Program-made: the position numbers and the translations under genes | Assembly (NCBI GenBank): GCA_965204945.1 | Contig: OZ242022.1 | Location: 2,138,369 to 2,202,368 of the forward strand | DNA length: 64,000 nt | Reading direction: 5' to 3' | Source: Limisphaerales bacterium | GTDB taxonomy: Bacteria > Verrucomicrobiota > Verrucomicrobiia > Limisphaerales > AAA164-E04 | Shown: piece by piece, positions 24,412-61,876 of the stretch | How positions within the stretch are numbered: position 1 is the stretch's first letter | Layout: the number at the start of each line of letters is the position of its first letter | The notes under the pieces: generated by a model | What the model was told of the DNA's origin: nothing | Database searches by the model: none | What the model saw: the letters and a program-made list of their open reading frames with translations, nothing else

Positions 24412-24435
24412 CCGCTGGAAAATCAGCGGCTTTTT
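24412..24435 (+). terminator. rho-independent terminator after mcsB
   Basis: CCGCTG-GAAAAT-CAGCGG followed by CTTTTT. Confidence 0.5.
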
Positions 24436-26939: not shown

Positions 26940-26968
26940 AAGTATTTTTATGATCTGATTAAACGGAA

Positions 26969-28774: not shown

Positions 28775-28793
28775 ATCTTTTTAGTCTCTACTA

Positions 28794-29327
28794 TTAATGG
28801 CCTTCACCCCACCAGAGGGTAGGTTTGAGGATGGAGAGGAAGTGGAGTTTTTCTTTCTCGGTCATAGTTTTGGGGTTAATCTTTTCAATCGTGCCGTCGG
28901 CGAAGGTGACTTGGTTTGCGTCCAAACGGTGGATGGCTTTGCCGAGTAAGTTGGATAAGGTTTCGGCAACGTCCACATCGGGGTATAAGCCTTGCAGGTT
29001 GATTTCGATTTTGTCGTCTTGGGCAAATTGGCAGGCGTAGGCAAGTTTGTCGTCGCCGAAGAAGACATATTGCTCAAAGGGAGATTTTGCGCTGTCGATT
29101 TCCAGTTGCTCGCCGTCTTGGTAATGAACGTTTCGCAAGGTTTCTTCATATTGTTCTAGCGCGTAGTATTTTAATACTCCGCCGCCTTTATAGTCGGTTT
29201 GTTTGCTGACGCCAGATTGATGGCTGGCCAGAACTTTTTTCATCCTTGGCAAAATCACGGTGTAAAAATGCTCTCCCATTTCAATGCCAAGCCACTTTCT
29301 GCTCCCCTTCCTTTCGCTAATCCTCAC
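28794..29327 (-). pseudogene. C-terminal fragment of an N6-adenine/N4-cytosine DNA methyltransferase
   Basis: RKWLGIEMGEHFYTVILPRMKKVL..YKGGG..KYY.LEQYEETLRN resembles the tail of Type III/IIG methylases from memory. No catalytic N-terminal part is present. Confidence 0.55.
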
Positions 29328-29601
29328 CCCTCCTTCCTAAACCGCACCATTCTTCAAATCTGCCAACAAAGAAAAACTCCGCTTCTCACAAAGATACAAA
29401 CTAATCCCACATCCAATCAGCAGCATCTTCGAACCACAAACAACACTCCGCCCGCTGATTTACTTGCACGAAGACTGACGGCTATAAGTCACCGATCCGT
29501 GGATCACCCCAATCACGAATTGCTGATGGCGGTTACAAAGTGACGGAGGAAGACAAAGCCGAGGGCGAATATGCTAAAAGGCAACCGCGCATTCTTAAGA
29601 T

Positions 29602-30433
29602 TTAAAAACCAAAACCCTTAATCGTATCGAAACTGACCACCTGCAATCCGTTGAAACTCGACGTGACTACAGTGCTGCTTGCTATAAAAAAGGGATCACC
29701 ATAATAATACTCGCCGAGACTGTTGACGGTAAAATTGGTGACGGCGTAAGGTAAGGTGCCTTACCCTCTCCATGAGATTGCGTCTCCGGATGAATATCTC
29801 AAATTCGATATCTTCACGCGAATGTCTAAAATATAGGATCCTTGCCCTTTCAAAGAAGGAATATAGGACAGATTAATTCTATTGATGGTTCCAGTGCCAA
29901 ACGGAGTAATGATCCGCGGCAGCAAGTTGGGGTTGGCCTTCAAGGTGAAGAAGTTCGTTAATTGCCGGCCTGGATGGCCTCTGAATTCGAAACAGGCAGA
30001 AAATTCTCTTTTGATTTGCTTGTCGTTAAAATGGTCGGAGGCGGGCCTTTGTTTACGGGATGCCGCTCGTGGAGAGGGTAGTTTTCCCAAAGAAAGGAAA
30101 GAAAGGAATTTCGCCGCGTTTTCTTCGAAATTTGCGATTGGCGGGAACGATGCTCTAGTTGACGGACAAAAAGTCCTTCTTCTGCGCGGCGTTTTCCTCC
30201 CAACACTTGCGGATTTCCATTTTTGAGGTATCATGAGGCAACGAGTTTGTTGCGGACAAATTACCGGCGAAGGAGAGGCCGAAGGCGAGGATGCCTAGAA
30301 AGAAGTTTTGAAAAAATTGAAAATTGAGAAGCCGGTGGAATCGAGGTTCCTTTTGCGGAAATATTTTCAGGGAGGCGAGGTGGGAAGATTTGCAAGCGCC
30401 CGACGGCGCAAGGTTTAGGCGGAGGGGCCGCAA
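29602..30433 (-). pseudogene. outer-membrane beta-barrel-like gene with a frameshift and an in-frame TAA
   Basis: Signal-like FFLGILAFGLSFAGNLSA, alternating beta-strand pattern, and a terminal ...TIKGFGF. TAA at 29761-29763 is in frame; there is a frame change near 30155-30234. Confidence 0.4.
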
Positions 30434-30448
30434 ATTGTTGTAGTTTTT

Positions 30449-30856
30449 ATGGCGTCAAACAAAATTCCTTCCGGCGCGCGATTGGCAAGCTCTCTTCGTT
30501 TTGACGGCGTGACTAGGTTTTCCGAGACTTCTTGGACGCCGAACACGGATATTTTCCTCGACGAGGAAAGTTTGGTGATTCAGGTGGAAGTGGCGGGAAT
30601 GCGGCCGGAAGACCTTCATATCAAGGCGGAGGGCAATCGGCTTTGTGTGACGGGCAGTCGATCCCCGGAACGTCTTAACCGCCCTGCCCGATGCAAGTTC
30701 ATTGTCATGGAAATCCATTTCGGCGACTTTCGTTTTTACATCGACCTGCCCAAGGGCTATGATCTGAGCCGGGCGGATGCCAAATATCACAACGGCATTC
30801 TGCGCGTGGAAGCTCCTATCGCCGGACGGTCAAACTCTGAAGAGGGGAAAAAATAG
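30449..30856 (+). CDS. Hsp20/alpha-crystallin small heat-shock protein
   Basis: WTPNTDIF..EESLVIQVEVAGM..EDL.I...GN.L.V.G.R ... NGILRVEAP. Confidence 0.9.
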   Translation: MASNKIPSGARLASSLRFDGVTRFSETSWTPNTDIFLDEESLVIQVEVAGMRPEDLHIKAEGNRLCVTGSRSPERLNRPARCKFIVMEIHFGDFRFYIDLPKGYDLSRADAKYHNGILRVEAPIAGRSNSEEGKK

Positions 30857-30899
30857 CGTCCGACGGTTTTGCGCGCGCCGCCAGAGCGGAAGACTTCAA

Positions 30900-34444: not shown

Positions 34445-35857
34445 ATGAAAAAAACAATATTCTTTTCAAAACGGCTTGACGATTCCCCCGAATCGGTCAA
34501 GGATAGCAAGAACAATGACACGCAAACTGCATCGCAAACGACGGCAAACGGCCAAGCGGAGAAGGAATCCCGCTGGACGCGCAAACGCATCGGCCTGCTC
34601 GTCGTCCTTGCGCTCACCTGCATCGCCACTATGCTGACGACAAGCCTCATCGAGCAAGCAGGAGCGGCGTCCGCATCCACAAATCAAATCACGCGACAAA
34701 CTCCGCCCTCCTACCGAAGTAAATCACCTACCACATCCACAAATCGAGTAATTCCACGTAGAAGCAGAAACATCGCGGCTCCATCAAGAGCGATGCCAAC
34801 CAGAACAGCGCGAACCAACCAAGTGCAAACGCCAAGTCGTAGAACAATCCCCGTACCGAATCGAAGTAGAACACGACCAGCCGCAGTTCCTGTGCCAGTC
34901 GTGGTGGTCGCCAAACCCGTTCTCAAAAAAGGCGCTATCGTAGCAGGAAAATGGCTCATCGCCGTTCTTGCCGAATATGGAGTTCACAGCGCACTAGACA
35001 GGGTCTTTCAAAATAACAAAGACCAAGAAGCCTACGTAACCGTCCACGGCGCGCACTGGCTCTCCAATGAGTATTTTTGGAGATCGTCCAGTCCACACAC
35101 ACCTTCGCCTAGAAATGTTTTAACAACAATAGCAACAATGAAAAAAGAAGACGATCCAGAAAGCGCAGAAGGATGGGACGCCTTTAATAATCGCTCCATG
35201 ACGCAGTCGGAAGCAAAAGGCCACATGAAACGCAGGATAGCCAGCACCACAGAAAGCATATGGTCTGCAATAGTGCCTGCAACGACCACCCAGCATGCGC
35301 AAACAATGTTCTTCCCTATCAAAGCAAGAACAGATCATTATGCGGCAGAAGAAGCAAGAATACTCGCATTGTATCGTGCCATGCATCCAACCATAATATT
35401 AACTAAAGGCGGGGAAGACCTTAAAAAATGGAAAGTGGGAAGTTTTGTAATGTTCAGCGATTTCGTCGATCCTCCCCCGATTTTGAAAAAACTCGGAACG
35501 GAAAACGCCATCGACAGCGACGCCAACTATTACAAAGCCAAAGCCAGATGGAAATACCGAGAACTCAATCCAAACGGAACATGGGGGGAATGGCAAGATG
35601 CTGAAAAAACCTTCAGCCAAGAAACCGGGGACGGAATCAAGAGCTGGGATGACCATACCTTCGACTTTGACTTCTGCAAAGATAACCAAGAAATCACCGA
35701 ACCCGAAATCTACAGAGGCATCAAACGATTCATTTCAAAACGGCCCGTTTATGAACAGCGAAGAGCGAGAGGACAAATGAGTCGTGGCGGAAAGTATCGC
35801 TGGGTAAGAGTCGGATGGGAACCGGTGGTGGCTCAGAAGTACCATGACGCCAATTAG
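34445..35857 (+). CDS. hypothetical membrane-anchored basic protein, first gene of cassette 2
   Basis: TM segment IGLLVVLALTCIATML, then a P/R/T-rich linker. NYYKAKARWKY weakly resembles NWYNPRARWRW in 8781-9755. Confidence 0.6.
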   Translation: MKKTIFFSKRLDDSPESVKDSKNNDTQTASQTTANGQAEKESRWTRKRIGLLVVLALTCIATMLTTSLIEQAGAASASTNQITRQTPPSYRSKSPTTSTNRVIPRRSRNIAAPSRAMPTRTARTNQVQTPSRRTIPVPNRSRTRPAAVPVPVVVVAKPVLKKGAIVAGKWLIAVLAEYGVHSALDRVFQNNKDQEAYVTVHGAHWLSNEYFWRSSSPHTPSPRNVLTTIATMKKEDDPESAEGWDAFNNRSMTQSEAKGHMKRRIASTTESIWSAIVPATTTQHAQTMFFPIKARTDHYAAEEARILALYRAMHPTIILTKGGEDLKKWKVGSFVMFSDFVDPPPILKKLGTENAIDSDANYYKAKARWKYRELNPNGTWGEWQDAEKTFSQETGDGIKSWDDHTFDFDFCKDNQEITEPEIYRGIKRFISKRPVYEQRRARGQMSRGGKYRWVRVGWEPVVAQKYHDAN

Positions 35858-35893
35858 GAAAACCGAAACAAAGCAGAAAAGGAGAACATTGAG

Positions 35894-36934
35894 ATGACCA
35901 AAATAGATAAACTCCTTTACGGCGGATTCGCCGTCGTGGCCATCGGCGGCCTAATAACCATGCTGGTGTCCGTTTTCTCGCCATCAAAGCCAGTAGTGGA
36001 AGAATCCGTCGAGCCTCCGCAAACCGAGCAAGCAACGATGAAAACAACTTCGATTGTCAACGAGCCAGCGCAACCAGAAAATGGCACTGGAGAGTACTGG
36101 TTTGACGAGAATGGAAACAAAGTCTGGACCACCCAAGAGCAAATCGCCGAAAGCGATGCTTACGAAGCAGAACTCAAACGGCAAGAAGAAGAGCAAAGAG
36201 CCCTCGATGAAGCGGAGAAAGAATGGTGGGAAAGCAGGCAAGATTGGGTAGACCGATTCCCGTTCGAGCCAACCCCGCATCCAGAGATTACCTACGATCC
36301 TGATGCCTTTCGAGCCAGCCGAGAAATGCGCGATTTGGCTAGAAACCACAGCTTGTTGAAAATGTTCTACGAAAGCTGGGTGCCTTACACCGAAGAGTTC
36401 GAACAACTGCACGACATCATCGAAGAAGAGCTCGGCGAAGTGGGAAGCACGGTGGCTCTCGCTGTAACATTCAGAACGCTCGCAAAATACCACAAAGCGG
36501 CGCAACAATCCCCCGATTCGGTTTACCGAGAAAACGTCCGAGTGGAACTGCCAAAACCAGAACCGGTCAACACAATGGTCGCTCTGGGGCCGGAGTTTTA
36601 CAGCCTCCCCCTAGAAAAACAAATCCAGATAAGTAATGAGCTCATCGACGCCCAAATAGAAGCCATGAGAGCTAATAACACGCAAAAATACGAAGTGCGT
36701 GACGTCACTTGGGCGGAACGAACGGAAAGACTGGCAACGCTCATTATCGGCCCGTTAGTGAACCAGAGAACCGGATGGGAAGGAATTCCCAAAGAACAGG
36801 CAATCGCCATTAGGGATCGCTTAATCAACGAAATCCCGGCGGCGGGTTTCTTGGAACTGCCCGAATTGATTTGGGCTTACAATGGCAAATACATGGGCGA
36901 ATTGAAAGCCGGTGATCCGTTGCTCGTCAAGTAG
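35894..36934 (+). CDS. paralog of 7221-8330 (WxDxFPF...EFEQ...IRDRLIxEI family)
   Basis: TM segment GGFAVVAIGGLITMLV; WVDRFPF, TEEFEQLHDIIEEE, VTWAERTER and AIAIRDRLINEIPAAGF. Confidence 0.7.
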   Translation: MTKIDKLLYGGFAVVAIGGLITMLVSVFSPSKPVVEESVEPPQTEQATMKTTSIVNEPAQPENGTGEYWFDENGNKVWTTQEQIAESDAYEAELKRQEEEQRALDEAEKEWWESRQDWVDRFPFEPTPHPEITYDPDAFRASREMRDLARNHSLLKMFYESWVPYTEEFEQLHDIIEEELGEVGSTVALAVTFRTLAKYHKAAQQSPDSVYRENVRVELPKPEPVNTMVALGPEFYSLPLEKQIQISNELIDAQIEAMRANNTQKYEVRDVTWAERTERLATLIIGPLVNQRTGWEGIPKEQAIAIRDRLINEIPAAGFLELPELIWAYNGKYMGELKAGDPLLVK

Positions 36935-46588: not shown

Positions 46589-47491
46589 TCAATCCCCACC
46601 CATCCCCACCCAATGACGGCTCATAATATCGGACTGAACCAAAGTCGTGGCGCATCCGCAAAACGGATCCAACACAATGTCGCCCGAATTGCTGCTCGCC
46701 TTGATAATCCGCTCCAACAACGCCTGCGGCTTCTGCGTTTTTTGTCCCACTCGTTCTTTTGAGTTAGGGCTAATAATCGGAATGTCCCAAGTACTCCCTA
46801 CAACAAGATGACTGCTTGGCGTCCGCTTGATTGGCTTTCCCGATGCGTCTTTCTTTACCACTGTTTTTCCGTCTTCATCCTTTGCGCTGACATATTGGGA
46901 TGGGTTTGGCGTTAGATTGGGGACAAGAATGGGGTTGATTTTGGTCTTTTTGCTTTTTGCGTAGAACAGGATAGTGTCGTGCAATTTTGGGAAAGATTTC
47001 TTTGATTTGACTGTCCACCGGTTGTAATGCCACACGATTTCATTTCTAAAATTGTCTTTGCCGAAGATGGCGTCCATTAGGAGGCGCAGGTAGGCGTTGG
47101 CGCTAGGGTCGCAGTGCAGGTAAATGCTGCCGGTTTCTTTGAGCAGGCGGCGGCATTCAATCAAACGAGTGGCCATCATGGTCAAGTAGGCCTGCATTCC
47201 TTTGCCGTGAACTTGCCCTGCGGCGCGAGCCACGTCGTAGGCTTTTTGGTTTTGGTGCGCCAGCAAGCCAAACTCCACTTCCCGCAGGTCGTCAAACGTC
47301 CAGAAGTCTTTGAAAGAAGTTCCGCTCAAAGACTGGTATAGCCTTTTGCTGTTGAACGGCGGGTCGAGGTATATCAGGTCAATCGTCCTCGAATTCATCG
47401 CCCGCATTACGTCGAGATTGTCTCCGATGAAGAGCGTTCTATTCTTCCAATTTACCGCTGTAGCAATGACTGCCTTTTCTAAATTACTCAT
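46589..47491 (-). CDS. beta-class N6A/N4C DNA methyltransferase
   Basis: Motif IV LDPPFNS near the N-terminus and motif I VLDPFCGCATT near the C-terminus. Ends abruptly inside the conserved W.GI(D/E) tail. Confidence 0.85.
   Translation of the reverse strand: MSNLEKAVIATAVNWKNRTLFIGDNLDVMRAMNSRTIDLIYLDPPFNSKRLYQSLSGTSFKDFWTFDDLREVEFGLLAHQNQKAYDVARAAGQVHGKGMQAYLTMMATRLIECRRLLKETGSIYLHCDPSANAYLRLLMDAIFGKDNFRNEIVWHYNRWTVKSKKSFPKLHDTILFYAKSKKTKINPILVPNLTPNPSQYVSAKDEDGKTVVKKDASGKPIKRTPSSHLVVGSTWDIPIISPNSKERVGQKTQKPQALLERIIKASSNSGDIVLDPFCGCATTLVQSDIMSRHWVGMGGD
46593..46612 (-). repeat. perfect 10-bp tandem duplication (TCCCCACCCA x2 on the + strand)
   Basis: Read base by base. Removing one copy joins the methylase frame to the HNH frame. 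Confidence 0.95.
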
Positions 47492-51122: not shown

Positions 51123-52001
51123 ATGACGAAACTCATGCCAATAATTGCCGCCGGAGTGGTTGCCCTTTCCGCTGCATTCAATTGGGAAAGGATTCCCTTT
51201 GTCTGGATGGTCGGCTTTATTGTCTACGGACTCCTTCTCTATTTTCCCAAGAAACAAACGGAAACCGATGCCGAAAGACTGAATCAACTGGCCGAGCATT
51301 ATTATTTTGTCGGCTACATCGCCACCATCACCGGATTAGGCGGCGTTCTTTACAAGTTGGGCATGCGCGTCCAATCCAACCAAAATTTAGAAGAATTATT
51401 GACCCCAGATTTACTCAAACTAGGCGGTACCAGCGTTGGTTGCACTATCATCGGCTTGATCGGAATGAACGTTTTCCGCGCCAAAGCATTCAAACAAGAA
51501 CAAGAAGCCCGAAAACTCGACGCCGAACTCGACGAGATACGAACCCAAAACGTCGTTCACCAAATCGCCAAAAATTTTGAAAATTTTGAAAACCGAATGA
51601 AAGAACTCGAAAGCACCCGCATGGAAGAGTTTTCCCGCCTGATGGATGCTTCGGAACTTTCCAAAGTGCTGACCCAACTGGTCGGCGAAATTCAGGGCGG
51701 CGCCAAAGGTTTGGAAGACCTGCGCAAAGTTTCCAAATCAGCCTTCGGCGCAATCAGCCATTTAGAGAAAAAGTTGACCGGGATGGACGGCGCATTGCAA
51801 GGCATCGCCGAAGACTCTGACAAAGTGCAACAAAACTTCGCAACCATCGCCGATCAATCCGACCGCATAGAAACACTGGCAAGCCATTTAGAATCCGCCT
51901 CCAACTCGCTAAAAACACTGGGCGAAGACGGCAAATCCAGCGTCCAAGAACTGCGCGATCAATTCGATCTTCTCAGCGAAAATCATCAAACAAACAAATG
52001 A
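51123..52001 (+). CDS. 4-TM membrane protein with a ~170-aa coiled-coil tail
   Basis: Four hydrophobic segments (IIAAGVVALSAAF, VWMVGFIVYGLLLYF, FVGYIATITGLGGVLY, VGCTIIGLIGMNVF) followed by a heptad-rich tail. Confidence 0.6.
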   Translation: MTKLMPIIAAGVVALSAAFNWERIPFVWMVGFIVYGLLLYFPKKQTETDAERLNQLAEHYYFVGYIATITGLGGVLYKLGMRVQSNQNLEELLTPDLLKLGGTSVGCTIIGLIGMNVFRAKAFKQEQEARKLDAELDEIRTQNVVHQIAKNFENFENRMKELESTRMEEFSRLMDASELSKVLTQLVGEIQGGAKGLEDLRKVSKSAFGAISHLEKKLTGMDGALQGIAEDSDKVQQNFATIADQSDRIETLASHLESASNSLKTLGEDGKSSVQELRDQFDLLSENHQTNK

Positions 52002-52047
52002 GGAAACCCAAGGTTGGAAAGACAAAACCAACGCCGCCCACAAACGA

Positions 52048-52803
52048 ATGGACGACTTTATCGAAAATTTCAGCAACTTGTGCCACAAACTAAAAACATC
52101 CGCAAACAAAGAAATCGGCGACTTCTGCGCCGCCTTTGAAACCGCCTGCCACAAACTGAACAATTCCCTGCAAACCGCTGAAAACTTCGTTCAAAAACTA
52201 AGCGACGGCACCAACAAAACCGCCAACTTTTCCCAATCTTTGGAAAGTCTCACCGCCCAAACCGCCGAACACAACAAAGCCTTTGAATCCTTCAAAACCG
52301 ACCTGCAACAAACCGCAACCGCCTTGACCCAAAACATTCAAGAACTGCTCGCCCAATTCAAAACCCTCGGCGAACAAATCACCGACGCCTCCCAAAAAAC
52401 GCAGATTTGGAAAAACCAAACCAACGAAACCAGCCAAGAAATCCAGCACTTCGGCGAAAGCTTCCAAACCGCCTGCCAACAATTACAAGCATCTTCAGAG
52501 ACGGTAATTCGCTATGCGGACAGCCTGCAACAACATTTGAACGATCCAAACTGGAATTCGAAAATGGCCGGAAACTTTGTTGATGATCTTGCCCGGAGGA
52601 TAAATGACTTTGCCAAAAGAATAAGCGAAAGTTTGTCACCAATGTCCAACCTTTCCCAATCCTTGAAAGAAATGCGCGAAGGAACTGCTCGCATCAACGC
52701 AGAGTTGGAAAAACTGCGAAAAATGATCGAAGAAATCCCAGAACAAATTAAAGAACAAAAGGGCTTCTGGCAGGGATTGCGTCAAATGTTTAGCAGGAAA
52801 TGA
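52048..52803 (+). CDS. soluble all-helical coiled-coil protein
   Basis: Q/E/K/T-rich helical repeats and no TM segment. Lies 46 nt after the previous gene. Confidence 0.55.
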   Translation: MDDFIENFSNLCHKLKTSANKEIGDFCAAFETACHKLNNSLQTAENFVQKLSDGTNKTANFSQSLESLTAQTAEHNKAFESFKTDLQQTATALTQNIQELLAQFKTLGEQITDASQKTQIWKNQTNETSQEIQHFGESFQTACQQLQASSETVIRYADSLQQHLNDPNWNSKMAGNFVDDLARRINDFAKRISESLSPMSNLSQSLKEMREGTARINAELEKLRKMIEEIPEQIKEQKGFWQGLRQMFSRK

Positions 52804-52921
52804 TATTCCTCCTCATCAAATTAAAAAAGCTGAAGATGGAAGAGCGACCCATCATCCAAAAACGAAAAACACAATTGACTCAAAATCTATTAACCGTTAA
52901 CAATAACTTCTTTCCTTTCCG

Positions 52922-54106
52922 ATGAAACACAACCGCAACTCTCATAGCGGCTTTGGTCTGCCTCTTTTCATCTCATTCAACGAACTGGCTTGGTTGGCCG
53001 TCGTCGGCGTTGTCCTCATCGCCGCGCCGCAACTAGTCAAAGGGAAACAACAAAGCTCGAACTCGCAAGAAGAGAAGAAAGAACAACTACAACACCAAAA
53101 ACAAGAACCAGAACCCACTTTGACAGAGGAAGATAAGTTGCGCCGCCAACTCAAAGAAGCAGAGCAAGAATTAGCCGAAGCGGAAAATCAACATTCCAAA
53201 GCGGAGCAAAAGTTAGAAAGTAAAAATACCGAGTTGCTTAGAAAAATTGATACGCTCGAAAAGCGACTCAAAGAAACGAAGCAAGAATTGGCCAAAACAC
53301 AAGATCGACTCGAAGAGGCAGAGCAAAAGTTAGAAGTTGCGGAAAGCAAAAATGCCGAGCTGCTGGAAAAAATCAATACGCTTGAAGAGCAGTTGAAAAA
53401 CCGGGAACAGGAACTGAAATTGGCTTTGGCAGAGAAACACAAGTTGCACGACCAACTGAAAGAAATGGCGCCAAATCAGCCTGAAAGAATGGAGCAAGTA
53501 GTGCGCAAGGAACTATTAGGCTTGGAAGGAGAATTAGAATACGTCGGACTTTTGCTAGACCGCTCCTCCAGCATGAAAAACGACAACCGATGGGAAAAAT
53601 CCATTAAGGTTGTGGAAACATGGCTTCAGCACTTGCCCATAGAAAACTGCTTCCTGATCCACTATAATCACGAATTCAATACCTTTCCCGCCAATCGATA
53701 CCTTCCTGTTTCCGGCCCGAATGGGATAAGAAATCGAAAATGGCTAATTCAACACATTCAAGACGTCCAACCGGCCGGAGGCACTCATACTATTGAGGCG
53801 CTGGCAAAAGCCTATAAGGATCCGAATCTGCAAACCATCATTCTCTTCACTGATGGTGAACCAAGACTTTGGGACGAAAATTCACAAGGCCGACTCTCGC
53901 AAAACAAAACCGATGAAGGCAATTATCAAACGGGAAGAAGTGTCAGTAGAAACATGAAAGAAATTCTCCAGTTATGCCGCAATGAGAAACAAAGACAGGG
54001 AGTGACAGTGAACGTAGTTGCCATTGGAGATTATTTTGACGAAGAGTTTGGCGAGTTCCTCAGAAATGTGGCGAAGGAAACGGACGGCGCCTTCATCGGC
54101 CGCTAA
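52922..54106 (+). CDS. TM-anchored coiled-coil protein with a C-terminal vWA (MIDAS) domain
   Basis: TM segment LAWLAVVGVVLIAA; duplicated AEQKLE..ELL.KI.TLE..LK coiled coil. MIDAS residues DRSSSM, GGTHT and FTDGEP. Confidence 0.75.
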   Translation: MKHNRNSHSGFGLPLFISFNELAWLAVVGVVLIAAPQLVKGKQQSSNSQEEKKEQLQHQKQEPEPTLTEEDKLRRQLKEAEQELAEAENQHSKAEQKLESKNTELLRKIDTLEKRLKETKQELAKTQDRLEEAEQKLEVAESKNAELLEKINTLEEQLKNREQELKLALAEKHKLHDQLKEMAPNQPERMEQVVRKELLGLEGELEYVGLLLDRSSSMKNDNRWEKSIKVVETWLQHLPIENCFLIHYNHEFNTFPANRYLPVSGPNGIRNRKWLIQHIQDVQPAGGTHTIEALAKAYKDPNLQTIILFTDGEPRLWDENSQGRLSQNKTDEGNYQTGRSVSRNMKEILQLCRNEKQRQGVTVNVVAIGDYFDEEFGEFLRNVAKETDGAFIGR

Positions 54107-54231
54107 TTTTCTCTAATCCCACAATGGAAAAAAGACTGGAAAAGAAACCTCCTTCAATTCACAAACAACAACCGAAAAGAAAACCAAGAAACAAAAACCT
54201 TCTTCGCTTTGGTGGTGCCAAGCCTTCCCTT

Positions 54232-57225
54232 TTATTCCCTCTCCTTATCCGGCGAATCCTCCTTGCTTTCTTCATCCTTCTTAAAAGTTTCGTTGAGGAT
54301 TTGGTCGTGACTTTTCTCCATCTTTTTTTGTTTGTCGATGTCAGAAAGTTTGTCCACTCTTTCATTCATGCGCTGTTTTACTTCTGCTTCACCAAGGGCG
54401 CGGAGTTTCTCTTGAAACTGCTTAATCAAAGTCTGCTCGTCGTTTTGTTCAAGGTATTCGCGCAATTCCTTTTCGTCTAACGATCCCTTGCGCTTAATCA
54501 AGAGATGCTTATTCAGACCGTCGATAACCTGAACGAATACAATGTCTTCGTTTCTTTTCTCAAACGACTCAGGCGAAAGATCTAGTAAAGATTCTATCCA
54601 CTGGTGAAGATTCTCTAAAGATTCCTTACGTTGAAGGTTGAAGTAGTTTTCCCCGTGTTTATGGGTAAAATTAGTGCAGACCGGGGGATTTTCTTCGGAT
54701 TTTTCCAATTGTTCGCTTGCGTATTTACAAATGACGAAGTCGGAGATGGCCAGCCCTATCTCTTCCCGATAGATAAAAATGAAGTGATCTAATGGAGAGA
54801 ACTCTGATGTGAACTCTCTTCCTCCCGGCGCCTCTTTATTGGCAAGTAGGGACAATTCTTTGCCAGCCTGGGAATCTTTGCAGAAAATGAAGTTTGGCGA
54901 CTGCGTGGCCGCCAAACTCAGAAGATCACACCCGTTAATGATTTCTACGTGGGGAAAAGAGCTGCGGACAAGCAATGCAATATTAAGTTGTTTGAGGTCG
55001 GAGATGGCTTTTTTGCCGACTTGAAATTTGTCAGTCACCCCTTGGCTGATCTGGTCAAAGGTTTTGTCCACGCGGAAAACGAGGCGATCCGTATTTTGGT
55101 TTTTAAGAATCGACATCAGGGGCTCTCCTTTCAGAAACTCATCGCGCAATGACTTGATGTCGTAGGTCTTTATAATTTCAGCGACACCAAGTTCCACGTC
55201 ATCAACAATACTGGATGGTTCTCCCCGCGTAATAATCGACAAGTTGTTGGCGCTTGGAAGTTCTAACAGCTTTTCTTTTTGCATTTTGCAAGTGGTCCGG
55301 AAAAGTGGCAACCTACCACTTTGGGAGGCGATGTCTCTGGACAGTTTTTCCAAAAACAATTGGCAATCGGCAAGAATGCCGTGGAGATAGTGATCTCGAA
55401 TTTCGTTCAGCCGATCATTCGCCTCCCGTTGCCATTGATTCCAGACGACATTGCGAACGGTTTGCTGATATTCGCTCTCCACTTTGGTCCTTTTCTCTTT
55501 GGAAAAGATTCGTAGGAAAAGATCCCAATTTCGTTGTTTCCGGCGAATCCATCGTTTCCGGAAATCACCGGAGCCGTATTTGTTTAGCACCAAGTCTGAA
55601 GAAAAGGAAAATGGAGGAAGGTTTGCCGGAAGTTGCGCAATCGCAGTCTTTATTTTTTGAAGAATTCCCTGGATGTAGGTTTTCGTCTCCGCATTAGTGT
55701 GATCGTTCATGTAGCGGATCACGATTTTTCGGATGTCTTCTTTCAAGTCTTTGGCTACCAAAATCTTGGCATTGTCAATCCTGCGGTAATAATCTCCATT
55801 GGGGTTTAGACGGTCTCCCAGTGTATTGCTTCGGACTGGAAATCCTGCCATGAAGTTGTCGATCATTTCCCATCCAATAAGGCTGAATTCGGCAAATTTA
55901 CTTCCAAAAAGACCGTTGATTTCGGCCGGCAGATCAAGATTGACTTGGGCGTTTGCCACAGTGCCAATCAAGCTCCCTTGGGCTCGCTCGTAAGAAGCGC
56001 CCCAGTCATTCTGAACTCCGTCATCCGCTTTGTTGGGATCAATATCTGAATTATCAAGCAAACCATTAATCATGCGGATAGCAAGTTGCCGATTGATTGC
56101 CCGGGAGATGCGGTTTCGAGGATACCAGATAGCGGAAAGCCCGAAGGAACTGAAAGCGCGCATGTGGCCTTTATTATTGGGTTGGAGATAGCCTTCAACT
56201 TGTTTAAGGTTTACGCGGATCGCAGCTTTTTTATCGGCAAGCCCAGCTACAACTTCGGTAAAGAGGTTCATAGCGCACATTCGTCTGAGATCCTTTGGAT
56301 TATCCCCCTTAAATCCGCCATTTTCTTGGTTTTTCATAGATTGCAAATAGACCGTGTCAAACGGGGCGTCCAAAGTGTCAATTTCCTGACCGTCGGGGAA
56401 TTTTACATAATAGCGGCTTTTTTCTAGGTAATAAAAGTCGAGTTCACGTAGCGCCGTCCAGCAGTTAACGCTGGGGACTTTGTACTTTGGATCTTTGCTA
56501 TGAACATCGTCCATGACGGTGAAAAGACCGATGACTTCCGGACGACCTCCCTCCATCATAGCGCTCTCTCTTCGGATGCCGAGCAGTTCGCTGACGAAGT
56601 AGGCCACGTCGATAAAGGCGCCGCTGCAAGTGCCGCCGCAAAGGGTGCCGCAGATGTAGACCTTCGGTTGGATTTTAACGAGAGATTTCGCGGGAAGGTC
56701 AGTGCCGGGGTGCTTGTCTGGAAAATATTCCTCGCGCAAGAATTTGTTTGCGGCAAGAATATTACCCGCATCGTGAATTGCCTCAATGGACTCGATTAAT
56801 TCACGGCGAACCTTATTTTTCCAGTTTTTCCAGAGGCAGAGACGGCCGGCTTGCCGAAGGTTTCCAGCGCCGGCCTCGTAGCTTTTCTGCCCCCGTTCAA
56901 TGAGTCGATTGTCCAGCCAATCTTTCAGGCTGGAGTCTTGTCCATCGCTTCCCTTCATCTGTTGTTGGACGTTGTCCACGTCGGCAACGGTGATATGAAG
57001 AGGCTTAATTTCCTCATAAGGTTCTGGATTGTGGGGAATAAATCCGTCATCGGGCTCTTTATTCTTGTCCGTTTCGATAGCCAGATAACGAAAACAGGGA
57101 AGTCCAGCTCGTCCAAATTCTTCGAGCACGAATTTTCTCAGGTCTTGAAGAATTTCCCAGCCATTAGTGCCAAGCCCGATAAACAAGCAAGGCCTGATAG
57201 TGAATTTGTCGTTGTCTTCTGCCAT
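54232..57225 (-). CDS. 997-aa tubulin/FtsZ-superfamily-like GTPase (Tubulin_2-type) with a long helical C-terminal region
   Basis: T1-like FIGLGTNGWEIL and T4-like ICGTLCGGTCSGAFIDVAYFV (compare GGGTGSG of tubulin and GGGTGTG of FtsZ). Confidence 0.65.
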   Translation of the reverse strand: MAEDNDKFTIRPCLFIGLGTNGWEILQDLRKFVLEEFGRAGLPCFRYLAIETDKNKEPDDGFIPHNPEPYEEIKPLHITVADVDNVQQQMKGSDGQDSSLKDWLDNRLIERGQKSYEAGAGNLRQAGRLCLWKNWKNKVRRELIESIEAIHDAGNILAANKFLREEYFPDKHPGTDLPAKSLVKIQPKVYICGTLCGGTCSGAFIDVAYFVSELLGIRRESAMMEGGRPEVIGLFTVMDDVHSKDPKYKVPSVNCWTALRELDFYYLEKSRYYVKFPDGQEIDTLDAPFDTVYLQSMKNQENGGFKGDNPKDLRRMCAMNLFTEVVAGLADKKAAIRVNLKQVEGYLQPNNKGHMRAFSSFGLSAIWYPRNRISRAINRQLAIRMINGLLDNSDIDPNKADDGVQNDWGASYERAQGSLIGTVANAQVNLDLPAEINGLFGSKFAEFSLIGWEMIDNFMAGFPVRSNTLGDRLNPNGDYYRRIDNAKILVAKDLKEDIRKIVIRYMNDHTNAETKTYIQGILQKIKTAIAQLPANLPPFSFSSDLVLNKYGSGDFRKRWIRRKQRNWDLFLRIFSKEKRTKVESEYQQTVRNVVWNQWQREANDRLNEIRDHYLHGILADCQLFLEKLSRDIASQSGRLPLFRTTCKMQKEKLLELPSANNLSIITRGEPSSIVDDVELGVAEIIKTYDIKSLRDEFLKGEPLMSILKNQNTDRLVFRVDKTFDQISQGVTDKFQVGKKAISDLKQLNIALLVRSSFPHVEIINGCDLLSLAATQSPNFIFCKDSQAGKELSLLANKEAPGGREFTSEFSPLDHFIFIYREEIGLAISDFVICKYASEQLEKSEENPPVCTNFTHKHGENYFNLQRKESLENLHQWIESLLDLSPESFEKRNEDIVFVQVIDGLNKHLLIKRKGSLDEKELREYLEQNDEQTLIKQFQEKLRALGEAEVKQRMNERVDKLSDIDKQKKMEKSHDQILNETFKKDEESKEDSPDKERE

Positions 57226-57263
57226 AATGCTTTAAATAAAATGAAAAAATTCGTCTGTTCGGC

Positions 57264-59432
57264 TTAAAAAGTCTCCGGTATTATCTCCTCGGAAATGTCA
57301 ATAGTCAAGGTTCTTTTGGCGCCAAAATCATCCGTGATTTCGACCGAATCTGAAAACTTGAGCCAATGAGGTTTGCCGTCGTTTCCCGGCGAGAAAAAAC
57401 CAAGATGCGAATGCCGTTGGAAATAGCAACCCTTTGCGGGAATATCGCACACAAATTCATCGCCGGCGCCATCATTTGTCGCATCCGTTTGGCTCAGGTA
57501 GATTTTGTCCTGCATTTCCAAAACGAAAGTTTTCAACGGCTTGAGGTTTTGGCCGGCGTTGGGCTTGTTGTCTTTTTTCGACTTCGAAACTTCGGAGATT
57601 TCCACGCGCATTTTCTTGTTGGGCGGCACAGGCGGCGCGTTGCGGGCTTTTCTGATCTTTCCCCAAAATTTTGCCGAAACGAACAAGAGGAAAATTGCAG
57701 GAATCAGAATCCACCAGAAACGCTGCAACCAACCTTTTGGAGGCTCTGGACTAATGGCAATCAAAAGACTGGCCGAGGATTGCTCTTCGCCGTCGCCTTG
57801 CACGATTAGCGTAATGGTTTTGTCACCCGGCGTTTGGAAAGTGAATTCAGGATGTCTTTCCATGCTAGAACTTTCATCGTTGAAGTTCCACCGCCAAGAT
57901 TGAATCAAGCCGATGGACTCGTCCAGAAAGCGGACTGTTTGCCCCACTCCTATTTTAGAAGGGCTATCCAAACCAATCGCCGCTTGGGGAGGAGGAATGG
58001 GCGGAGGAGGAATAAATAAAGTTGGCGGCGACGGCAGAATAGTCAGGCTATGGATTTTGCTACGAATTTCTTGGCCGTTGGAAAGTTTGCCGACCAGTTG
58101 AACTCTAAAAGTCTTTGGATCATCCCCATCGTTTTCATATTGATGTTGCGGCGATCTTTCCGCGCTGGTTTGGCCGTCGCCAAAATCCCAGCGGAAGGAC
58201 ACAAAGTTGCCTTGGGACTCGTTGGCAAATTGCACAACTTGATTGTGATGGTATGTTTTTGGATTCGCTCGGAAATTCACAATGGCGGACGGTTCGCGGA
58301 CAATGAGAGTTTGTGGATCGGAAGGAAACCACTTGCCGTTTTCATTCTGCGCGGAAAAGACAACGGAAAACTCGCCTTCGGAAGCAAACTTCCATTCAAA
58401 ATCCAACTCCCTGCCTTTGATTTCGTCATCGATCTCCCACTTGTAAGCAACGGGATGTCCCAAACTGCGCCCGTAAAACCGGACGGATTGCATAGATGAA
58501 GGATTGAGGGGTTTCCAGTGGAGAACTTCGGAGCGGATCGAAGGCGGCTGATACGGATCAGAAACCTGAATAGTTACTTGCGAATGTTCTTGACCACCTT
58601 GCGCCCCTTCTACTTCAAGACGGATGGCATGCTCTCCGCTGGTTGTAAAAATGTGCTTTAAAACTTTGTTGGTAGAAACCGGTTGGCCGTTCACGCTCCA
58701 ACTATAAGTTTTGTAAATCGAGGAAGAGTTTTCATAAGCGATCATTTCCTTGCCAACACGAAGGCCCTTCGGCCGCCATTCAACGACCGGAGACAACAAA
58801 ATCTCAAAGTTGGGATCGTGTCTGAGGCGAAAACCGGAATGGTCTCCTATATCTCTCTGGGTTTTTACATCCATCTTGAAGTCGCCGAGTATGACGAGGT
58901 GACCTTGTATGCTCTTGCCGTCCACCGGAAAACCTTTCACAGCTTCATTGAAAGTGGGGACATCTTCATTCTCTTCGGTGTTTTGCCCGTCGGTGAACAC
59001 TCTTACCTGCACTGTTTGTCCGGGATTTTCGTTTGCATAGCGCGTGGCCACCTCCAATGCCTTGCGCAAAGTCGTCCACAAATGTGTCTTTCCAGTTTTA
59101 TGCGCTTCTGCTTCTTCATCGATTCCGTCGCACCAGACAAGCGCCGGCTGATGATCCAATTTGTTTCGGAAAATGAATTCGCGTTGCGATTGGATTCCAG
59201 AGTTAAACGAAACCAACGTGAGCCGCGATCCCAAAGGCAAGGCTTGAAGCCAGCTTTGTAGCGCATTCTGCACCGTTGTAATCCGATTCTGCGAATCGCT
59301 CGGAGAAACGCTTCTTGTCATCGACCCGGACGTATCCACCACAATGACATAATCCGCCGCTTGCAAAGACCCGCCGGCCCAAAACGCGAACGCCAGCGAC
59401 AACAACACTCTCAAAACAATTCGATACATCAT
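57264..59432 (-). CDS. secreted vWA domain, three or four PKD/Ig domains, a TM helix and a cytoplasmic tail
   Basis: Signal peptide; MIDAS VVDTSGSM..T..FTDGQ. PKD-like WSVNG.., FRWDFGDGQTS and WRWNFNDESS. TM segment WWILIPAIFLLFVS followed by a ~130-aa tail. Confidence 0.8.
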   Translation of the reverse strand: MMYRIVLRVLLSLAFAFWAGGSLQAADYVIVVDTSGSMTRSVSPSDSQNRITTVQNALQSWLQALPLGSRLTLVSFNSGIQSQREFIFRNKLDHQPALVWCDGIDEEAEAHKTGKTHLWTTLRKALEVATRYANENPGQTVQVRVFTDGQNTEENEDVPTFNEAVKGFPVDGKSIQGHLVILGDFKMDVKTQRDIGDHSGFRLRHDPNFEILLSPVVEWRPKGLRVGKEMIAYENSSSIYKTYSWSVNGQPVSTNKVLKHIFTTSGEHAIRLEVEGAQGGQEHSQVTIQVSDPYQPPSIRSEVLHWKPLNPSSMQSVRFYGRSLGHPVAYKWEIDDEIKGRELDFEWKFASEGEFSVVFSAQNENGKWFPSDPQTLIVREPSAIVNFRANPKTYHHNQVVQFANESQGNFVSFRWDFGDGQTSAERSPQHQYENDGDDPKTFRVQLVGKLSNGQEIRSKIHSLTILPSPPTLFIPPPPIPPPQAAIGLDSPSKIGVGQTVRFLDESIGLIQSWRWNFNDESSSMERHPEFTFQTPGDKTITLIVQGDGEEQSSASLLIAISPEPPKGWLQRFWWILIPAIFLLFVSAKFWGKIRKARNAPPVPPNKKMRVEISEVSKSKKDNKPNAGQNLKPLKTFVLEMQDKIYLSQTDATNDGAGDEFVCDIPAKGCYFQRHSHLGFFSPGNDGKPHWLKFSDSVEITDDFGAKRTLTIDISEEIIPETF

Positions 59433-59497
59433 AACAATAAAAACAATCAATTTACACTTTCGGCAACAAAACCACAGCCGGCAATGGCTTTGTTCGG

Positions 59498-61246
59498 TTA
59501 AATGCCGTCGGCGTGGGGCCAGATTTGGACAATCGCTTGCACTAATCGCTCGCTACGTTTCACAATTGTTGTTTCGTCCCATACTTCCGGAGCATTATCC
59601 AACAACTCTTTGTTGAGATACAATCCGCTGTGTTGGTGCAATGCTTTCTTTTTGTTTTCCCATGATTTGTTGGGGATAGCAAAATTCAATCTTTTGCTTG
59701 CCAGAGTTAAATTTCCAATGAAATCGACGAATCCATCTAAATTACCATTGGGGTTTACTGCAAAGCCTCCCTGCGGCAAAATACGTTCAACGGTTAGCTC
59801 GCTGGTATCGCCAAGCGGCTTTGCAGACATGGGTTTGCTTGTTGCGATGGCTTCAAAAACCATCATTTTCTGCGCTTTACTTCCGGGCATTGAAAAATTA
59901 GTGAGATAAGAAATCACTTCGTCGTCGTCGGGCCAGCGATTGCCTCCAAATTTCTTGTTCAAAAATTGGATTATGACTTTATCCGTTGGTTGACTTTTTT
60001 GCGCTTCCAAGGGTTTTGCCATATCAGTAAAAAGATTCTTCAGTCCTGTCCCGTATATTTTACACAGCATTCGCCGCACTAGATAGCTTTCCAATGCGCG
60101 AGCAATTCTTTGCCATTCGTCTTCGGAAACGTCGTTCGTGTAAAGCCACAGCAAGGGCGGCATGATTACGCCGATTTTCATCGTCTTAATTCGCTCTAGA
60201 AACAATGCTATTCTTTCTCCCGGCGGCTCGTCCTCCTTAATTTTTCCCGGCAACTTGTTCTTCTCAATTTTCCAATAAGCTAATCCTGATTCCTTAATGT
60301 CTTCTGCAACCTCTTCAATGTTTGGTTGGAACTGAATGTAGTTGCGAAACTCTTCCGCCGTACGATCAAAGGTAACGTATTTGCTGATGCGCATCATGAT
60401 CCAATAGTTTAGGAATCTGTCGAGGCGGATCTGAGAATCTTTCCCTTGTCCATCTAAAAAATGCCACCAGATATCCTCAAACATTCCAAACAGCTGCTCC
60501 GCCTTCTGCTCGTCGTCGATAACGTTGGCTTTGTACATTATCGTGCCTTTGATAAGATCGGCTTGGGTCAACGGTTTTCCGCGTGCATTAAGGGTTTCAA
60601 AAATGACGTACGGTTCTTGTCTGGGTGCCAAGATAATGGACACCACTTTTAACTGCTTGACGAGGGCTTTGTGCAAAGCCGTCGCTCTGACATCGACGTT
60701 TGCATGGCGGCTGACCCACTCGAGCACATTTTCATGGAAGTAGTTGTAAGCTTTTGTGATGTCGTGGGACTGATGCTCTAATTTAATTTCATCTCTAATG
60801 ACTGCCCGAAAAACTCGTCGGTCTCTGTTGGACTGGACAATTTTAGTTTCGTTGAGAGGGTCGTTCCCAGTTCGCTTTCGGTCATTGAGTAAAAGCTTGT
60901 CCAAGTTGAATTTTTTGGTATCGCTCAGCGATTTTTGAAACGCCTTTTGCGTGGCTTTGATCAAGAGTTGCAACGTCGTGAGCCTTTGCTGGCCGTCCAC
61001 TACAAAAATTTGGCTAACTTTGGCATCCGCCGATTTCATCGGTTGCAGAAGGATGGACCCCATAAAGTGAGGAAGTAAATCTTTTTGACGATATTTGAGG
61101 ATGCGATCCGCCATTTTGTGGGCGTCTTCCCATAATGGTTGCCATTGTTTTTCGCTCCACGCATAAGGGCGCTGGAACTGCGGAATGCGATAAGAAACGG
61201 AATCGTCAAACAGGTCGTCAATCCCTTGAATTTTTGCGTCCATCAT
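59498..61246 (-). CDS. DUF262 plus DUF1524 (GmrSD-like) protein
   Basis: N-terminal YRIPQFQRPYAW and VVDGQQRLTT. The C-terminal ..VERILPQ...IGNLTLASKRLN matches the DUF1524 layout but has Arg where the HxxP His is expected. Confidence 0.8.
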   Translation of the reverse strand: MMDAKIQGIDDLFDDSVSYRIPQFQRPYAWSEKQWQPLWEDAHKMADRILKYRQKDLLPHFMGSILLQPMKSADAKVSQIFVVDGQQRLTTLQLLIKATQKAFQKSLSDTKKFNLDKLLLNDRKRTGNDPLNETKIVQSNRDRRVFRAVIRDEIKLEHQSHDITKAYNYFHENVLEWVSRHANVDVRATALHKALVKQLKVVSIILAPRQEPYVIFETLNARGKPLTQADLIKGTIMYKANVIDDEQKAEQLFGMFEDIWWHFLDGQGKDSQIRLDRFLNYWIMMRISKYVTFDRTAEEFRNYIQFQPNIEEVAEDIKESGLAYWKIEKNKLPGKIKEDEPPGERIALFLERIKTMKIGVIMPPLLWLYTNDVSEDEWQRIARALESYLVRRMLCKIYGTGLKNLFTDMAKPLEAQKSQPTDKVIIQFLNKKFGGNRWPDDDEVISYLTNFSMPGSKAQKMMVFEAIATSKPMSAKPLGDTSELTVERILPQGGFAVNPNGNLDGFVDFIGNLTLASKRLNFAIPNKSWENKKKALHQHSGLYLNKELLDNAPEVWDETTIVKRSERLVQAIVQIWPHADGI

Positions 61247-61273
61247 AAAAATGCGTCTCTTTTACGGTTTTTC

Positions 61274-61876
61274 TTAAAAAAGTGTGGATTTGTCTTTGGA
61301 AATGATTTCCACTTTTAAGCGAATTCCAAGATGCTGGGCAATTTCATCGAGCTGCTCTTTCTTTTTTCGAGTGCCTGAATAGAGGCAAATATACCATCCC
61401 TGGATTTTTTGTTGCGCGAATGTTTTACCGTCGCGGCGTGGGGCAGAATCGATCAAAGGAACTCCATTCCCGTGAAGCCCTAGTTTGCGGACTTTGTCGA
61501 TTCCGATCTTTTGGATGGTTTCGACAAAGGTATTCCTCGCGGAGTTTCTTTCAATTCTCTCTCCGTAGGGAAACGTCACTCTCAATTTGGTTTGAGGCGC
61601 GTTTGGGGGTCTGTAAATTTTAGGCGGCGGATCATCTTCTGGAGGATCCTCAAGAATGTCGATGCCGTCGATCCATTCTTGGCGCAGGGCGTTCACACGG
61701 GTTTGGAAGGCTTTGAGGTTCTTGCCGCGGTCGAGAAGAACTTGGCCTTTCTCATAATCCGCGTTCATGGAGGCTTGCGTGATTTGTTTCGTGATTTCCT
61801 GATTGGCTTTGTCCAACTCTTCCATGACCAGCTTGAAAGCTGCGGCGACACTGTCTTTGTTTAGGTGTTCGTTCAT
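61274..61876 (-). CDS. hypothetical protein (N-terminal helical region, P-rich linker, C-terminal alpha/beta domain)
   Basis: 200-aa ORF lying 27 nt upstream of the DUF262 gene. No motif recognised. Confidence 0.5.
   Translation of the reverse strand: MNEHLNKDSVAAAFKLVMEELDKANQEITKQITQASMNADYEKGQVLLDRGKNLKAFQTRVNALRQEWIDGIDILEDPPEDDPPPKIYRPPNAPQTKLRVTFPYGERIERNSARNTFVETIQKIGIDKVRKLGLHGNGVPLIDSAPRRDGKTFAQQKIQGWYICLYSGTRKKKEQLDEIAQHLGIRLKVEIISKDKSTLF

Follow-up and report, generated by a model that had tools for sequence, protein, structure and literature searches.

A 64,000-nt stretch of a Limisphaerales (Verrucomicrobiota) chromosome (contig OZ242022.1, 4.31 Mb; the whole stretch is referred to as the window) contains a low-GC locus that encodes a tubulin-like GTPase, membrane proteins with domains of the von Willebrand factor A (vWA) type and long coiled coils, and a GmrSD-family protein. 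Which of these genes form one system, and what might this system do? The locus very probably carries a four-gene FtsZl1/Tubulin_2 module, consisting of a receptor-like vWA protein with PKD domains (vWA-PKD), the tubulin-like protein (Tub), a multi-transmembrane (TM) coiled-coil protein (TM-CC), and a TM-coiled coil-vWA protein (CC-vWA). With regard to its role, we tentatively favor a dispensable, membrane-associated conflict or immune system, which would be gated by GTP-dependent assembly and would use TM-CC/CC-vWA as its membrane output. The loci of relatives fetched for comparison carry L numbers, and all were searched with the window proteins.

Gene content and layout of the locus

A first-pass annotation, made by a model from the letters alone, had described seven genes in two convergent strings. 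All of its open reading frame (ORF) coordinates were reproduced in the ORF table, and Pfam bore out both its domain calls (Tubulin_2, VWA_2, PKD, and GmrSD_N/C) and the flanking genes that it had named (LpxD, Glyoxalase/VOC, and a GFO_IDH_MocA oxidoreductase, referred to as Gfo). On the other hand, the number of genes decreased to six because ORFs 51123-52001 and 52048-52803, which had been read as two plus-strand coiled-coil proteins, form one frameshifted gene (TM-CC). Single proteins of 563-696 aa in the relatives span both ORFs, with the frame switch at ~51976-51985, and a DNA alignment to L065 (a 99%-identical relative with a single 575-aa TM-CC) located one inserted nucleotide within a run of A at ~51979-51982: GCGAAATC in L065 versus GCGAAAATC in the window. 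Either a real mutation or a mistake in the assembly of the homopolymer may account for this frameshift. The four genes of the module and their spacer are as follows:

51123..52803, plus strand: TM-CC, multi-TM protein with a ~440-aa coiled coil, ~575 aa, one gene read as two ORFs (relatives' proteins and DNA alignment)
52922..54106, plus strand: CC-vWA, TM helix, charged coiled coil, and vWA domain, 394 aa (VWA_2, E=7e-10 in Pfam)
54107..54231, no strand: spacer between the convergent gene pairs, 125 nt, without a called terminator-like site
54232..57225, minus strand: Tub, FtsZl1/Tubulin_2 protein, 997 aa (Tubulin_2 in Pfam, AlphaFold2, and Foldseek)
57264..59450, minus strand, likely ATG at 59432: vWA-PKD, type-I membrane protein, 728 aa (Pfam and hydropathy)

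The convergence of the two strings across 125 nt, as annotated, was evident from the ORF ends, while a promoter/terminator scan gave counts equal to those in shuffled sequence and was uninformative on operon boundaries. The AT-richness of the region was also reproduced: GC content was 43-49% over 51.5-61.5 kb versus 54-59% in the flanks. Since GC at third codon positions (GC3) was low as well (0.49-0.54 in the module versus 0.65-0.75 in the flanks), this decrease is not solely due to Lys/Glu-rich coiled coils. A recently acquired simple island was rejected as an explanation, since the same slot, between LpxD/VOC and Gfo, holds the module in the complete Pedosphaera chromosome L014, in which Tub is 40% identical; the low GC3 still marks the module as compositionally atypical.

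Structure of the tubulin-like protein

The tubulin/FtsZ fold assigned to Tub in the first-pass annotation was supported by both Pfam and a fold search of the AlphaFold2 (AF2) model. Residues 14-385 matched Tubulin_2 (PF13809) with E=7e-46 and 157.5 bits (cut-off, 27). The AF2 model (mean predicted local distance difference test score, pLDDT, 80.5; predicted template modeling score, pTM, 0.69) contains a tubulin/FtsZ-fold GTPase domain at ~1-390 (alpha/beta at 13-390) that includes a helical insert of ~105 aa, a middle region of helical/coiled-coil character at ~397-655 with a 60-residue helix, and a C-terminal part with a mixed alpha/beta structure at ~656-915, followed by terminal helices up to residue 997. 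An H7-like helix and a second, activation-type domain are both present. In Foldseek, the N-terminal part matched CetZ2 (E=4e-5), and eukaryotic tubulins and phage TubZ were also found.

Several specific motifs were completely conserved in the primary structure: T1-type GLGTNG (G17/G19/G22) and T4-type GTLCGGTCSG (G193-T-x-C-G-G-T-x-S-G202) were invariant in 16 sequences. When the Tub profile was compared with E. coli FtsZ by hhalign, the S4-T4 segment alone aligned (E=0.11), with T4 placed onto FtsZ GGGTGTG. In the model, the invariant E261 and D263 are located at the end of the H7-like helix, where the catalytic T7 loop is expected, and may correspond to this loop. No match to FtsZ_C or Tubulin_C was found in Pfam. 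A sequence search of PDB with the Tub profile gave apolipoprotein-type coiled-coil noise only (E≥0.012), and the Tubulin_2 family appears to be without a sequence-level relative among solved structures. The C-terminal domain had no structural match in PDB (the fold search gave nothing below E=0.59); among 1.84 billion representative clusters, 30 contained it, in each case as the C-terminal end of a protein of this clade or within a fragment of such a protein, and it appears to be a clade-specific orphan.

Structure of the receptor-like protein

In Pfam, vWA-PKD contains VWA_2 (E=1e-10) together with at least three (three to four) PKD domains (PKD_4, E=4e-31); no FNIII match was found, the repeats being PKD. 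Hydropathy and charge indicated a signal-like N-terminus, extracytoplasmic vWA and PKD domains, one TM helix at ~577-597, and a basic juxtamembrane stretch, and the ~130-aa tail, which is kept in all orthologues, should be cytoplasmic. The metal ion-dependent adhesion sites (MIDAS) that had been proposed were found to be intact: both vWA proteins and every orthologue keep DxSxS and the downstream Thr and Asp, and the motif reads DTSGS in vWA-PKD and DRSSS...T...D in CC-vWA. Overall, this architecture fits the proposed membrane-spanning assembly, with MIDAS and PKD domains outside the cytoplasm, anchors that cross the membrane once, long coiled coils, and a GTPase of the tubulin/FtsZ fold in the cytoplasm.

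Many modules outside Limisphaerales have an extra small multi-TM protein (116-150 aa) between vWA-PKD and Tub (L007:3067-3432, L008:9625-9975, L013:4011-4463, and L069:5352-5717); the window has a 38-nt gap at this position.

Structure of the membrane pair

The sole TM helix of CC-vWA carries the motif PxxxSFNELAW, including the acidic residue Glu21, which was invariant in seven orthologues down to 28% identity. In the third and fourth hydrophobic segments (TM3-4) of TM-CC, YFxGYxxTITxL and TxxGLxGM were invariant, as were Thr68, Thr70, and Thr108. Together with the GTPase core of Tub and the vWA domains with their MIDAS, the TM motif of CC-vWA and TM3-4 of TM-CC are the best conserved parts of the module, and the coiled coils diverge fastest. 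These invariant polar TM motifs suggest a gated or ion-conducting membrane complex.

MotA_ExbB (PF01618), one of the families named for checking in the first-pass annotation, gave no match in Pfam at E up to 0.1 (in one scan, among the best 25 of 34 families). In hhalign, the probability was 2% for TM-CC against E. coli TolQ/ExbB/MotA, a weak negative because the reference profiles are thin, and ~1% or less for CC-vWA against TolR/ExbD/MotB, also with thin reference profiles. TM-CC gave coiled-coil noise only in Pfam, PADLOC, and NCBIfam. Matches of the coiled-coil proteins to JetC, ZorA, LmuB, and SMC (PADLOC and NCBIfam) covered the coiled coil only, and were rejected as composition matches. 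The likeness of TM-CC/CC-vWA to the MotAB, ExbBD, TolQR, and ZorAB stator pairs is, as far as the sequences go, an analogy only.

Conservation and distribution of the module

The nearest relatives were metagenome-assembled genomes (MAGs) of Limisphaerales (Verrucomicrobiota). All four genes occur together in the window and in L065, L011, L015, L012, L008, L013, and L014, in which the identity of Tub to that of the window is 99%, 88%, 78%, 47%, 42%, 41%, and 40%, respectively. They form two convergent gene pairs in the Limisphaerales loci, and one co-directional string in the metagenome contigs L071, L072, and L073 (vWA-PKD, small multi-TM ORF, Tub, TM-CC, and CC-vWA). The linkage of the four genes holds down to ~32-40% identity and across this changed gene order, and its survival is good evidence for a joint function. 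Co-conservation of Tub with its neighbors in other genomes, a check named in the first-pass annotation, was observed for the vWA and coiled-coil genes, but not for GmrSD or the gene for a 200-aa protein beside it. Only 17 clusters of the CC-vWA family were found among 5.8 billion proteins, at least seven of them on contigs of the same size as Tub-bearing ones, and the module family appears to be rare, patchy, and confined to one clade.

More distant Tubulin_2 proteins (≤33% identity, N-terminal domain only) were found in Deinococcus, Armatimonadota, Abditibacteria, Poribacteria, Myxococcota, and Actinomycetes. Their loci are without the partners of the module, and the neighbors are zinc-ribbon proteins, HSP70, GrpE, OmpA, and kinases, as already published. 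HSP70-like proteins (some with N-terminal zinc ribbons) and GrpE-domain, OmpA, and zinc-ribbon proteins are encoded at distant Tubulin_2 loci of Armatimonadota, Abditibacteria, and Deinococcus and of one Deltaproteobacteria MAG (L009:16000-19494, L024:9130-12006, L059:2814-5354, and L053:5127-6905). These loci fit the published DO-GTPase/HSP70 theme, in phyla beyond those listed for that theme. In L072 (7338-13310) and L073 (9768-15740), the co-directional module is followed immediately downstream, beyond a gene for a 322-aa protein without known function, by that for a giant secreted protein (at least 1991 aa) with two Lamin Tail Domains (LTD), a CotH kinase-like domain, Big_7, and a beta-helix.

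Coupling of orthologous Tub proteins to conflict-system components

In L007 and L016 (Verrucomicrobiota), a 36% identical Tub is accompanied by a homologous PKD partner and a small TM ORF, and is followed downstream by a DO-GTPase2-like gene, a GAP1-M gene, and an RHS-repeat gene. In L007, the 405-aa DO-GTPase2-like protein scored E=3.6e-5 and 24 bits, below the cut-off of 27, and GAP1-M scored 30.1 bits, above the cut-off of 24. A further orthologue, P0014 (40% identity over 98% of the length; found in two samples), continues into TIR_2 (49.6 bits) and an ABC-type ATPase, and is surrounded by ABC-3C components, DUF4365, and HepT/MNT genes. More distant Tubulin_2 proteins occur as fusions with an HSDR_N_2 domain of nuclease type, and have Mrr, HEPN-MNT, and XPB/DUF790 genes as neighbors. 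The orthologous loci indicate that the half consisting of the receptor and Tub is constant, and that the other half is swappable: TM-CC/CC-vWA, DO-GTPase/GAP1/RHS, or a fused TIR with an ABC ATPase.

Evolution and decay of the module

Between the window and L014, the flanking proteins are highly similar (aa identity: Gfo, 85%; VOC, 82%; LpxD, 77%) versus 40% for Tub, 49% for vWA-PKD, 49% for CC-vWA, and 49% and 44% for the N and C halves of TM-CC, respectively. The ratios of nonsynonymous to synonymous substitutions (dN/dS) were 0.26-0.55 for the module genes versus 0.03-0.17 for most of the flanking genes (VOC was noisy), and the module genes appear to be under purifying but weaker selection. 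Abrupt shifts in dS from gene to gene point to recombination mosaics.

Decay of the module was also observed. In L130 and L131, Tub is split over several frames and is without residues ~200-368, and the first ~504 residues of vWA-PKD are gone, while the neighboring housekeeping genes are all intact. Frameshifted module genes are also present in L014, L008, L013, and L073; across the syntenic loci, none of the 17 flanking gene copies is disrupted. Such decay in strains with intact flanks indicates that the module is dispensable and frequently lost. In L008, the locus is bracketed by transposases.

The GmrSD-family gene and the 200-aa gene

Two further genes lie upstream of vWA-PKD on the minus strand:

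59498..61246, minus strand: GmrSD-family Type IV restriction-like gene, 582 aa (GmrSD_N, 1.6e-38, and GmrSD_C, 3.8e-12, in Pfam)
61274..61876, minus strand: 200-aa protein, no family match

GmrSD-family enzymes work as stand-alone Type IV restriction enzymes. When all proteins were analyzed with PADLOC and NCBIfam, real matches were obtained for GmrSD (in PADLOC, Orf5, 2e-83; HEC-06; mREase_IV) and not for the module proteins. The DGQQR motif is present in GmrSD_N (DUF262) as VVDGQQRLTTL. In GmrSD_C (DUF1524), the His-Me nuclease motif (E-H-I-x-P) at ~residue 497 reads VERILP in the window versus VEHILP in L065, L011, and L015, and this replacement of the conserved His by Arg may inactivate the protein or may stem from an error in the sequence. 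The segment just after VERILP is also different from, and shorter than, that in the orthologues.

GmrSD had implicitly been counted as a member of the system, and this was contradicted by three patterns. Neither L014, in which vWA-PKD is the immediate neighbor of the 200-aa gene, nor any of the non-syntenic loci contains GmrSD. When near-identical strains are compared, no other segment diverges as strongly: the aa identity of the window to L065 is 60% for GmrSD versus 99% for Tub, and part of GmrSD is unalignable at the DNA level. In addition, GmrSD and the 200-aa gene are intact in L130, in which Tub and vWA-PKD are pseudogenes. GmrSD as the effector of the system was rejected on these patterns of presence, absence, and decay, which indicate an independent gene that landed in the slot later; GmrSD thus appears to be a separate Type IV restriction-like gene, unrelated to the module. 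The 200-aa protein gave no match in Pfam, NCBIfam, PADLOC, or PDB. Its gene is present in L011, L015, L014, L065, and L130, and absent from the non-syntenic loci, and is probably a resident of this slot in Limisphaerales/Pedosphaera outside the conserved module.

Function of the module

A conflict character of the module is suggested by its fast evolution, decay, low GC3, transposases, swapped and fused effector parts, the GmrSD gene in its slot, and DNA methyltransferase genes located less than 10 kb away. The module would be in line with the proposal of Kaur et al. (2020) for GTPase-centric systems that contain tubulin. The MIDAS/PKD ectodomain would bind an envelope or invader-derived ligand, the signal would pass through the TM helix and tail of vWA-PKD to Tub, and GTP-dependent self-assembly of Tub would function as threshold and amplifier; output would occur through the TM-CC/CC-vWA membrane pair, in the position that is held in orthologous loci by DO-GTPase, GAP1, and RHS or by the fused TIR and ABC ATPase. 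For this explanation as a whole, the four-gene module together with its conflict or immune role, we see about an even chance.

Several observations weigh against a role in conflict. The module has stayed in one chromosomal slot in different genera (L014), a less typical behavior for mobile defense islands, a scan of viral contigs found no copies of the module proteins, and several loci have non-defense neighbors (an SNase-domain protein and the giant LTD-CotH surface protein). Tub and vWA-PKD were unmatched in PADLOC, and the module proteins were without a specific match in NCBIfam. The dN/dS ratio was below 1 for every gene, and the disruptions may partly be assembly errors, as a Gfo frameshift in L002 is absent from the same genome in L001. 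The profile comparison shows no homology to the MotAB/ExbBD/TolQR stators. A literature search found no experimental work on the Tubulin_2/FtsZl1 family, and we infer polymerization, GTP hydrolysis, E261/D263 as T7, contact between the tail and Tub, and ion conduction.

The main rival, which we consider unlikely, is a non-immune membrane-remodeling or envelope machine, as predicted for FtsZl1-vWA operons in 2010: a Tub polymer, anchored via the vWA-PKD tail and the coiled-coil membrane proteins, would shape or vesiculate the membrane or organize a surface adhesion structure. The published context analysis of FtsZl1 operons points to this role, three of the four module proteins are membrane-bound and the coiled coils are long, vWA and PKD are classic adhesion modules, the slot beside lpxD, an envelope-biogenesis gene, is stable in two genera, and the LTD-CotH-Big_7 surface protein is located immediately downstream in L072/L073. 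However, the loss or degradation of the module in close relatives with intact flanks, its evolution at several times the rate of the flanks with a dS mosaic, the very rare and patchy family, and the coupling of orthologous Tub to the TIR, ABC-ATPase, RHS, and DO-GTPase/GAP1 parts typical of conflict systems weigh against such a machine.

It is improbable that TM-CC and CC-vWA are a divergent ion-driven 5:2 motor, like ZorAB, TolQR-TolA, or the tolQ-associated vWA transducers, that links an event at the envelope to the long coiled-coil tail in the cytoplasm, with Tub as a downstream partner. There is a parallel in architecture (beside a single-TM protein, a multi-TM protein extends a very long coiled coil into the cytoplasm), the invariant acidic E21 is located where the TM helix of CC-vWA begins, Thr-/Gly-rich motifs are invariant in TM3-4 of TM-CC, conservation is highest in the TM regions of the two proteins, the tail of TM-CC weakly matched ZorA models, and pairs of TM-tethered vWA and tolQ-like proteins, including those from Verrucomicrobia, were proposed as force transducers in a 2025 paper (PMC12204202). 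On the other hand, the MotA_ExbB match is absent in Pfam, the hhalign probabilities are at most 2%, the ZorA matches are confined to the coiled coil, the acidic residue is Glu and not Asp with a spacing unlike the ExbD/TolR motif, and a peptidoglycan-binding domain is absent. The model implicit in the first-pass annotation, in which all seven ORFs, including GmrSD as a nuclease effector and the 200-aa gene, form one system, is very improbable. The minus-strand genes are separated by short gaps (27, 47-65, and 38 nt), and the window, L065, L011, and L015 share the order of the 200-aa gene, GmrSD, vWA-PKD, and Tub; however, the absence of GmrSD from L014 and all non-syntenic module loci, its integrity where Tub and vWA-PKD have decayed, and its low identity between strains with 99% identical Tub all disagree with this model.

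Within the conflict or immune reading, a more specific version may be formulated: a compact tubulin-based conflict system without DO-GTPase and GAP1, in which an extracellular vWA-PKD receptor directly licenses the GTP-dependent polymerization of Tub, and TM-CC/CC-vWA, as a membrane complex not recognized before, conducts ions or gates the membrane through its invariant Glu/Thr TM motif. We regard this version as quite unlikely; if it is true, the complex would be a stator-like or pore-like effector of a new class, and bacteria would have their first immune switch based on a cytoskeletal polymer. The immune reading in general, if it holds, would show such a polymer in use as a bacterial immune switch. 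FtsZl1/Tubulin_2 is among the most divergent branches of the tubulin/FtsZ superfamily, and since 2010 has been the subject of conflicting computational predictions only (remodeling versus immunity). The minimal set of four genes, without a P-loop DO-GTPase or GAP1, makes reconstitution realistic. Natural loss-of-function alleles exist, and invariant residues are available for mutagenesis: the T4 loop, E261/D263, the MIDAS sites, Glu21, and Thr68/Thr70/Thr108.

Other features of the window

An N6_N4 DNA methyltransferase gene (46589-47491, minus strand; PADLOC MTase_II, 7.5e-69) is located 3.6 kb off the module, without an obvious restriction partner. The matching region in L001, L065, and L131 contains other methyltransferase fusions, including MTase+Mrr_cat and MTase+HNH, indicating that this nearby slot also varies among strains. 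A second low-GC patch (42-47% GC) at 24300-30700, between the gene for a McsB-like ATP:guanido phosphotransferase (23252-24364) and lon (30777-33275), looks like a small, partly decayed defense islet. In addition to several small ORFs without an assigned family, it contains:

28565-27132, minus strand: PtuA-like (Septu) AAA_21/AAA_15 ATPase (PADLOC PtuA, 1.4e-21)
29327-28794: Type III methyltransferase, 177-aa C-terminal fragment (2e-39)

Two adjacent plus-strand ORFs (470 and 346 aa) at 34445-36934 gave no Pfam match at E≤1e-4 and no PADLOC match at E≤1e-3.

Comparison with known systems

The first-pass annotation did not recognize the combination of genes as a named system. In fact, Tubulin_2 operons with vWA proteins (PMC2875224) and sets of tubulin, coiled-coil, and two vWA proteins (PMC7159879) have already been described; what is new here is the particular partner set, and the absence of DO-GTPase and GAP1.

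TM-CC/CC-vWA resembles ZorAB, MotAB, ExbBD, and TolQR in the multi-TM protein, whose coiled-coil tail is cytoplasmic and very long, in the single-TM partner with an invariant acidic TM residue and an extracytoplasmic-type domain, and in the defense-like genomic setting. It differs in that there is no detectable sequence homology, Glu replaces Asp, vWA replaces the peptidoglycan-binding domain, and no ZorC/ZorD-type effectors are present. The neighboring GmrSD gene shares GmrSD_N (DUF262, with DGQQR) and GmrSD_C (DUF1524) with the GmrSD Type IV restriction enzymes, and differs from them in the Arg that replaces the conserved His of the nuclease motif.

Makarova and Koonin (2010) defined FtsZl1 (now Pfam Tubulin_2), described its vWA partners with intact MIDAS, and predicted a role in membrane remodeling (PMC2875224). 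The window system likewise begins with a divergent GTPase of the FtsZ/tubulin kind, in which a loop is GGGTG(S/T)G-like and family-specific inserts separate T1 from T4, and it has a probable coiled-coil middle and an operonic vWA partner with a signal peptide/TM helix and intact MIDAS; the other partners are also lineage-specific membrane proteins, and function is likewise only predicted. Judging from these defining features, it appears to belong to FtsZl1. On the other hand, an associated P-loop GTPase, protein kinase, or OmpA protein is absent from the window locus, and its C-terminal domain is clade-specific and modeled as mixed alpha/beta, in contrast to the "mostly alpha-helical" domain described in 2010. 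The H7-like helix and second domain, which the sequence analysis of 2010 could not identify, are found in the AF2 model, and the set of vWA-PKD-tail, multi-TM-CC, and TM-CC-vWA proteins is not among the described contexts.

Kaur et al. (2020) reported sets of tubulin, coiled-coil, and two vWA proteins in DO-GTPase/GAP1-N2 conflict systems, with the tubulin theme in Firmicutes and Actinobacteria only (PMC7159879). Common to these systems and the module are a tubulin protein whose coiled coil is C-terminal, a pair of vWA proteins, of which one is bound to the membrane and has its vWA domain outside the cell, a component with beta-sandwich repeats, the membrane-proximal setting, variable effector parts, mobility, and patchiness. 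The window proteins matched no DO-GTPase, other P-loop GTPase, or GAP1 model in Pfam, and the defining DO-GTPase and GAP1 are missing from the window and its four-gene relatives; the orthologous L007/L016 does carry DO-GTPase2-like and GAP1-M genes beside the same Tub and PKD partner. The repeats are FNIII there and PKD here, and PKD, a similar Ig-like beta-sandwich, may be an analogue of the FNIII repeats; the phylum here is Verrucomicrobiota. The position of the GTPase/GAP1 pair is held in the window by TM-CC and CC-vWA.

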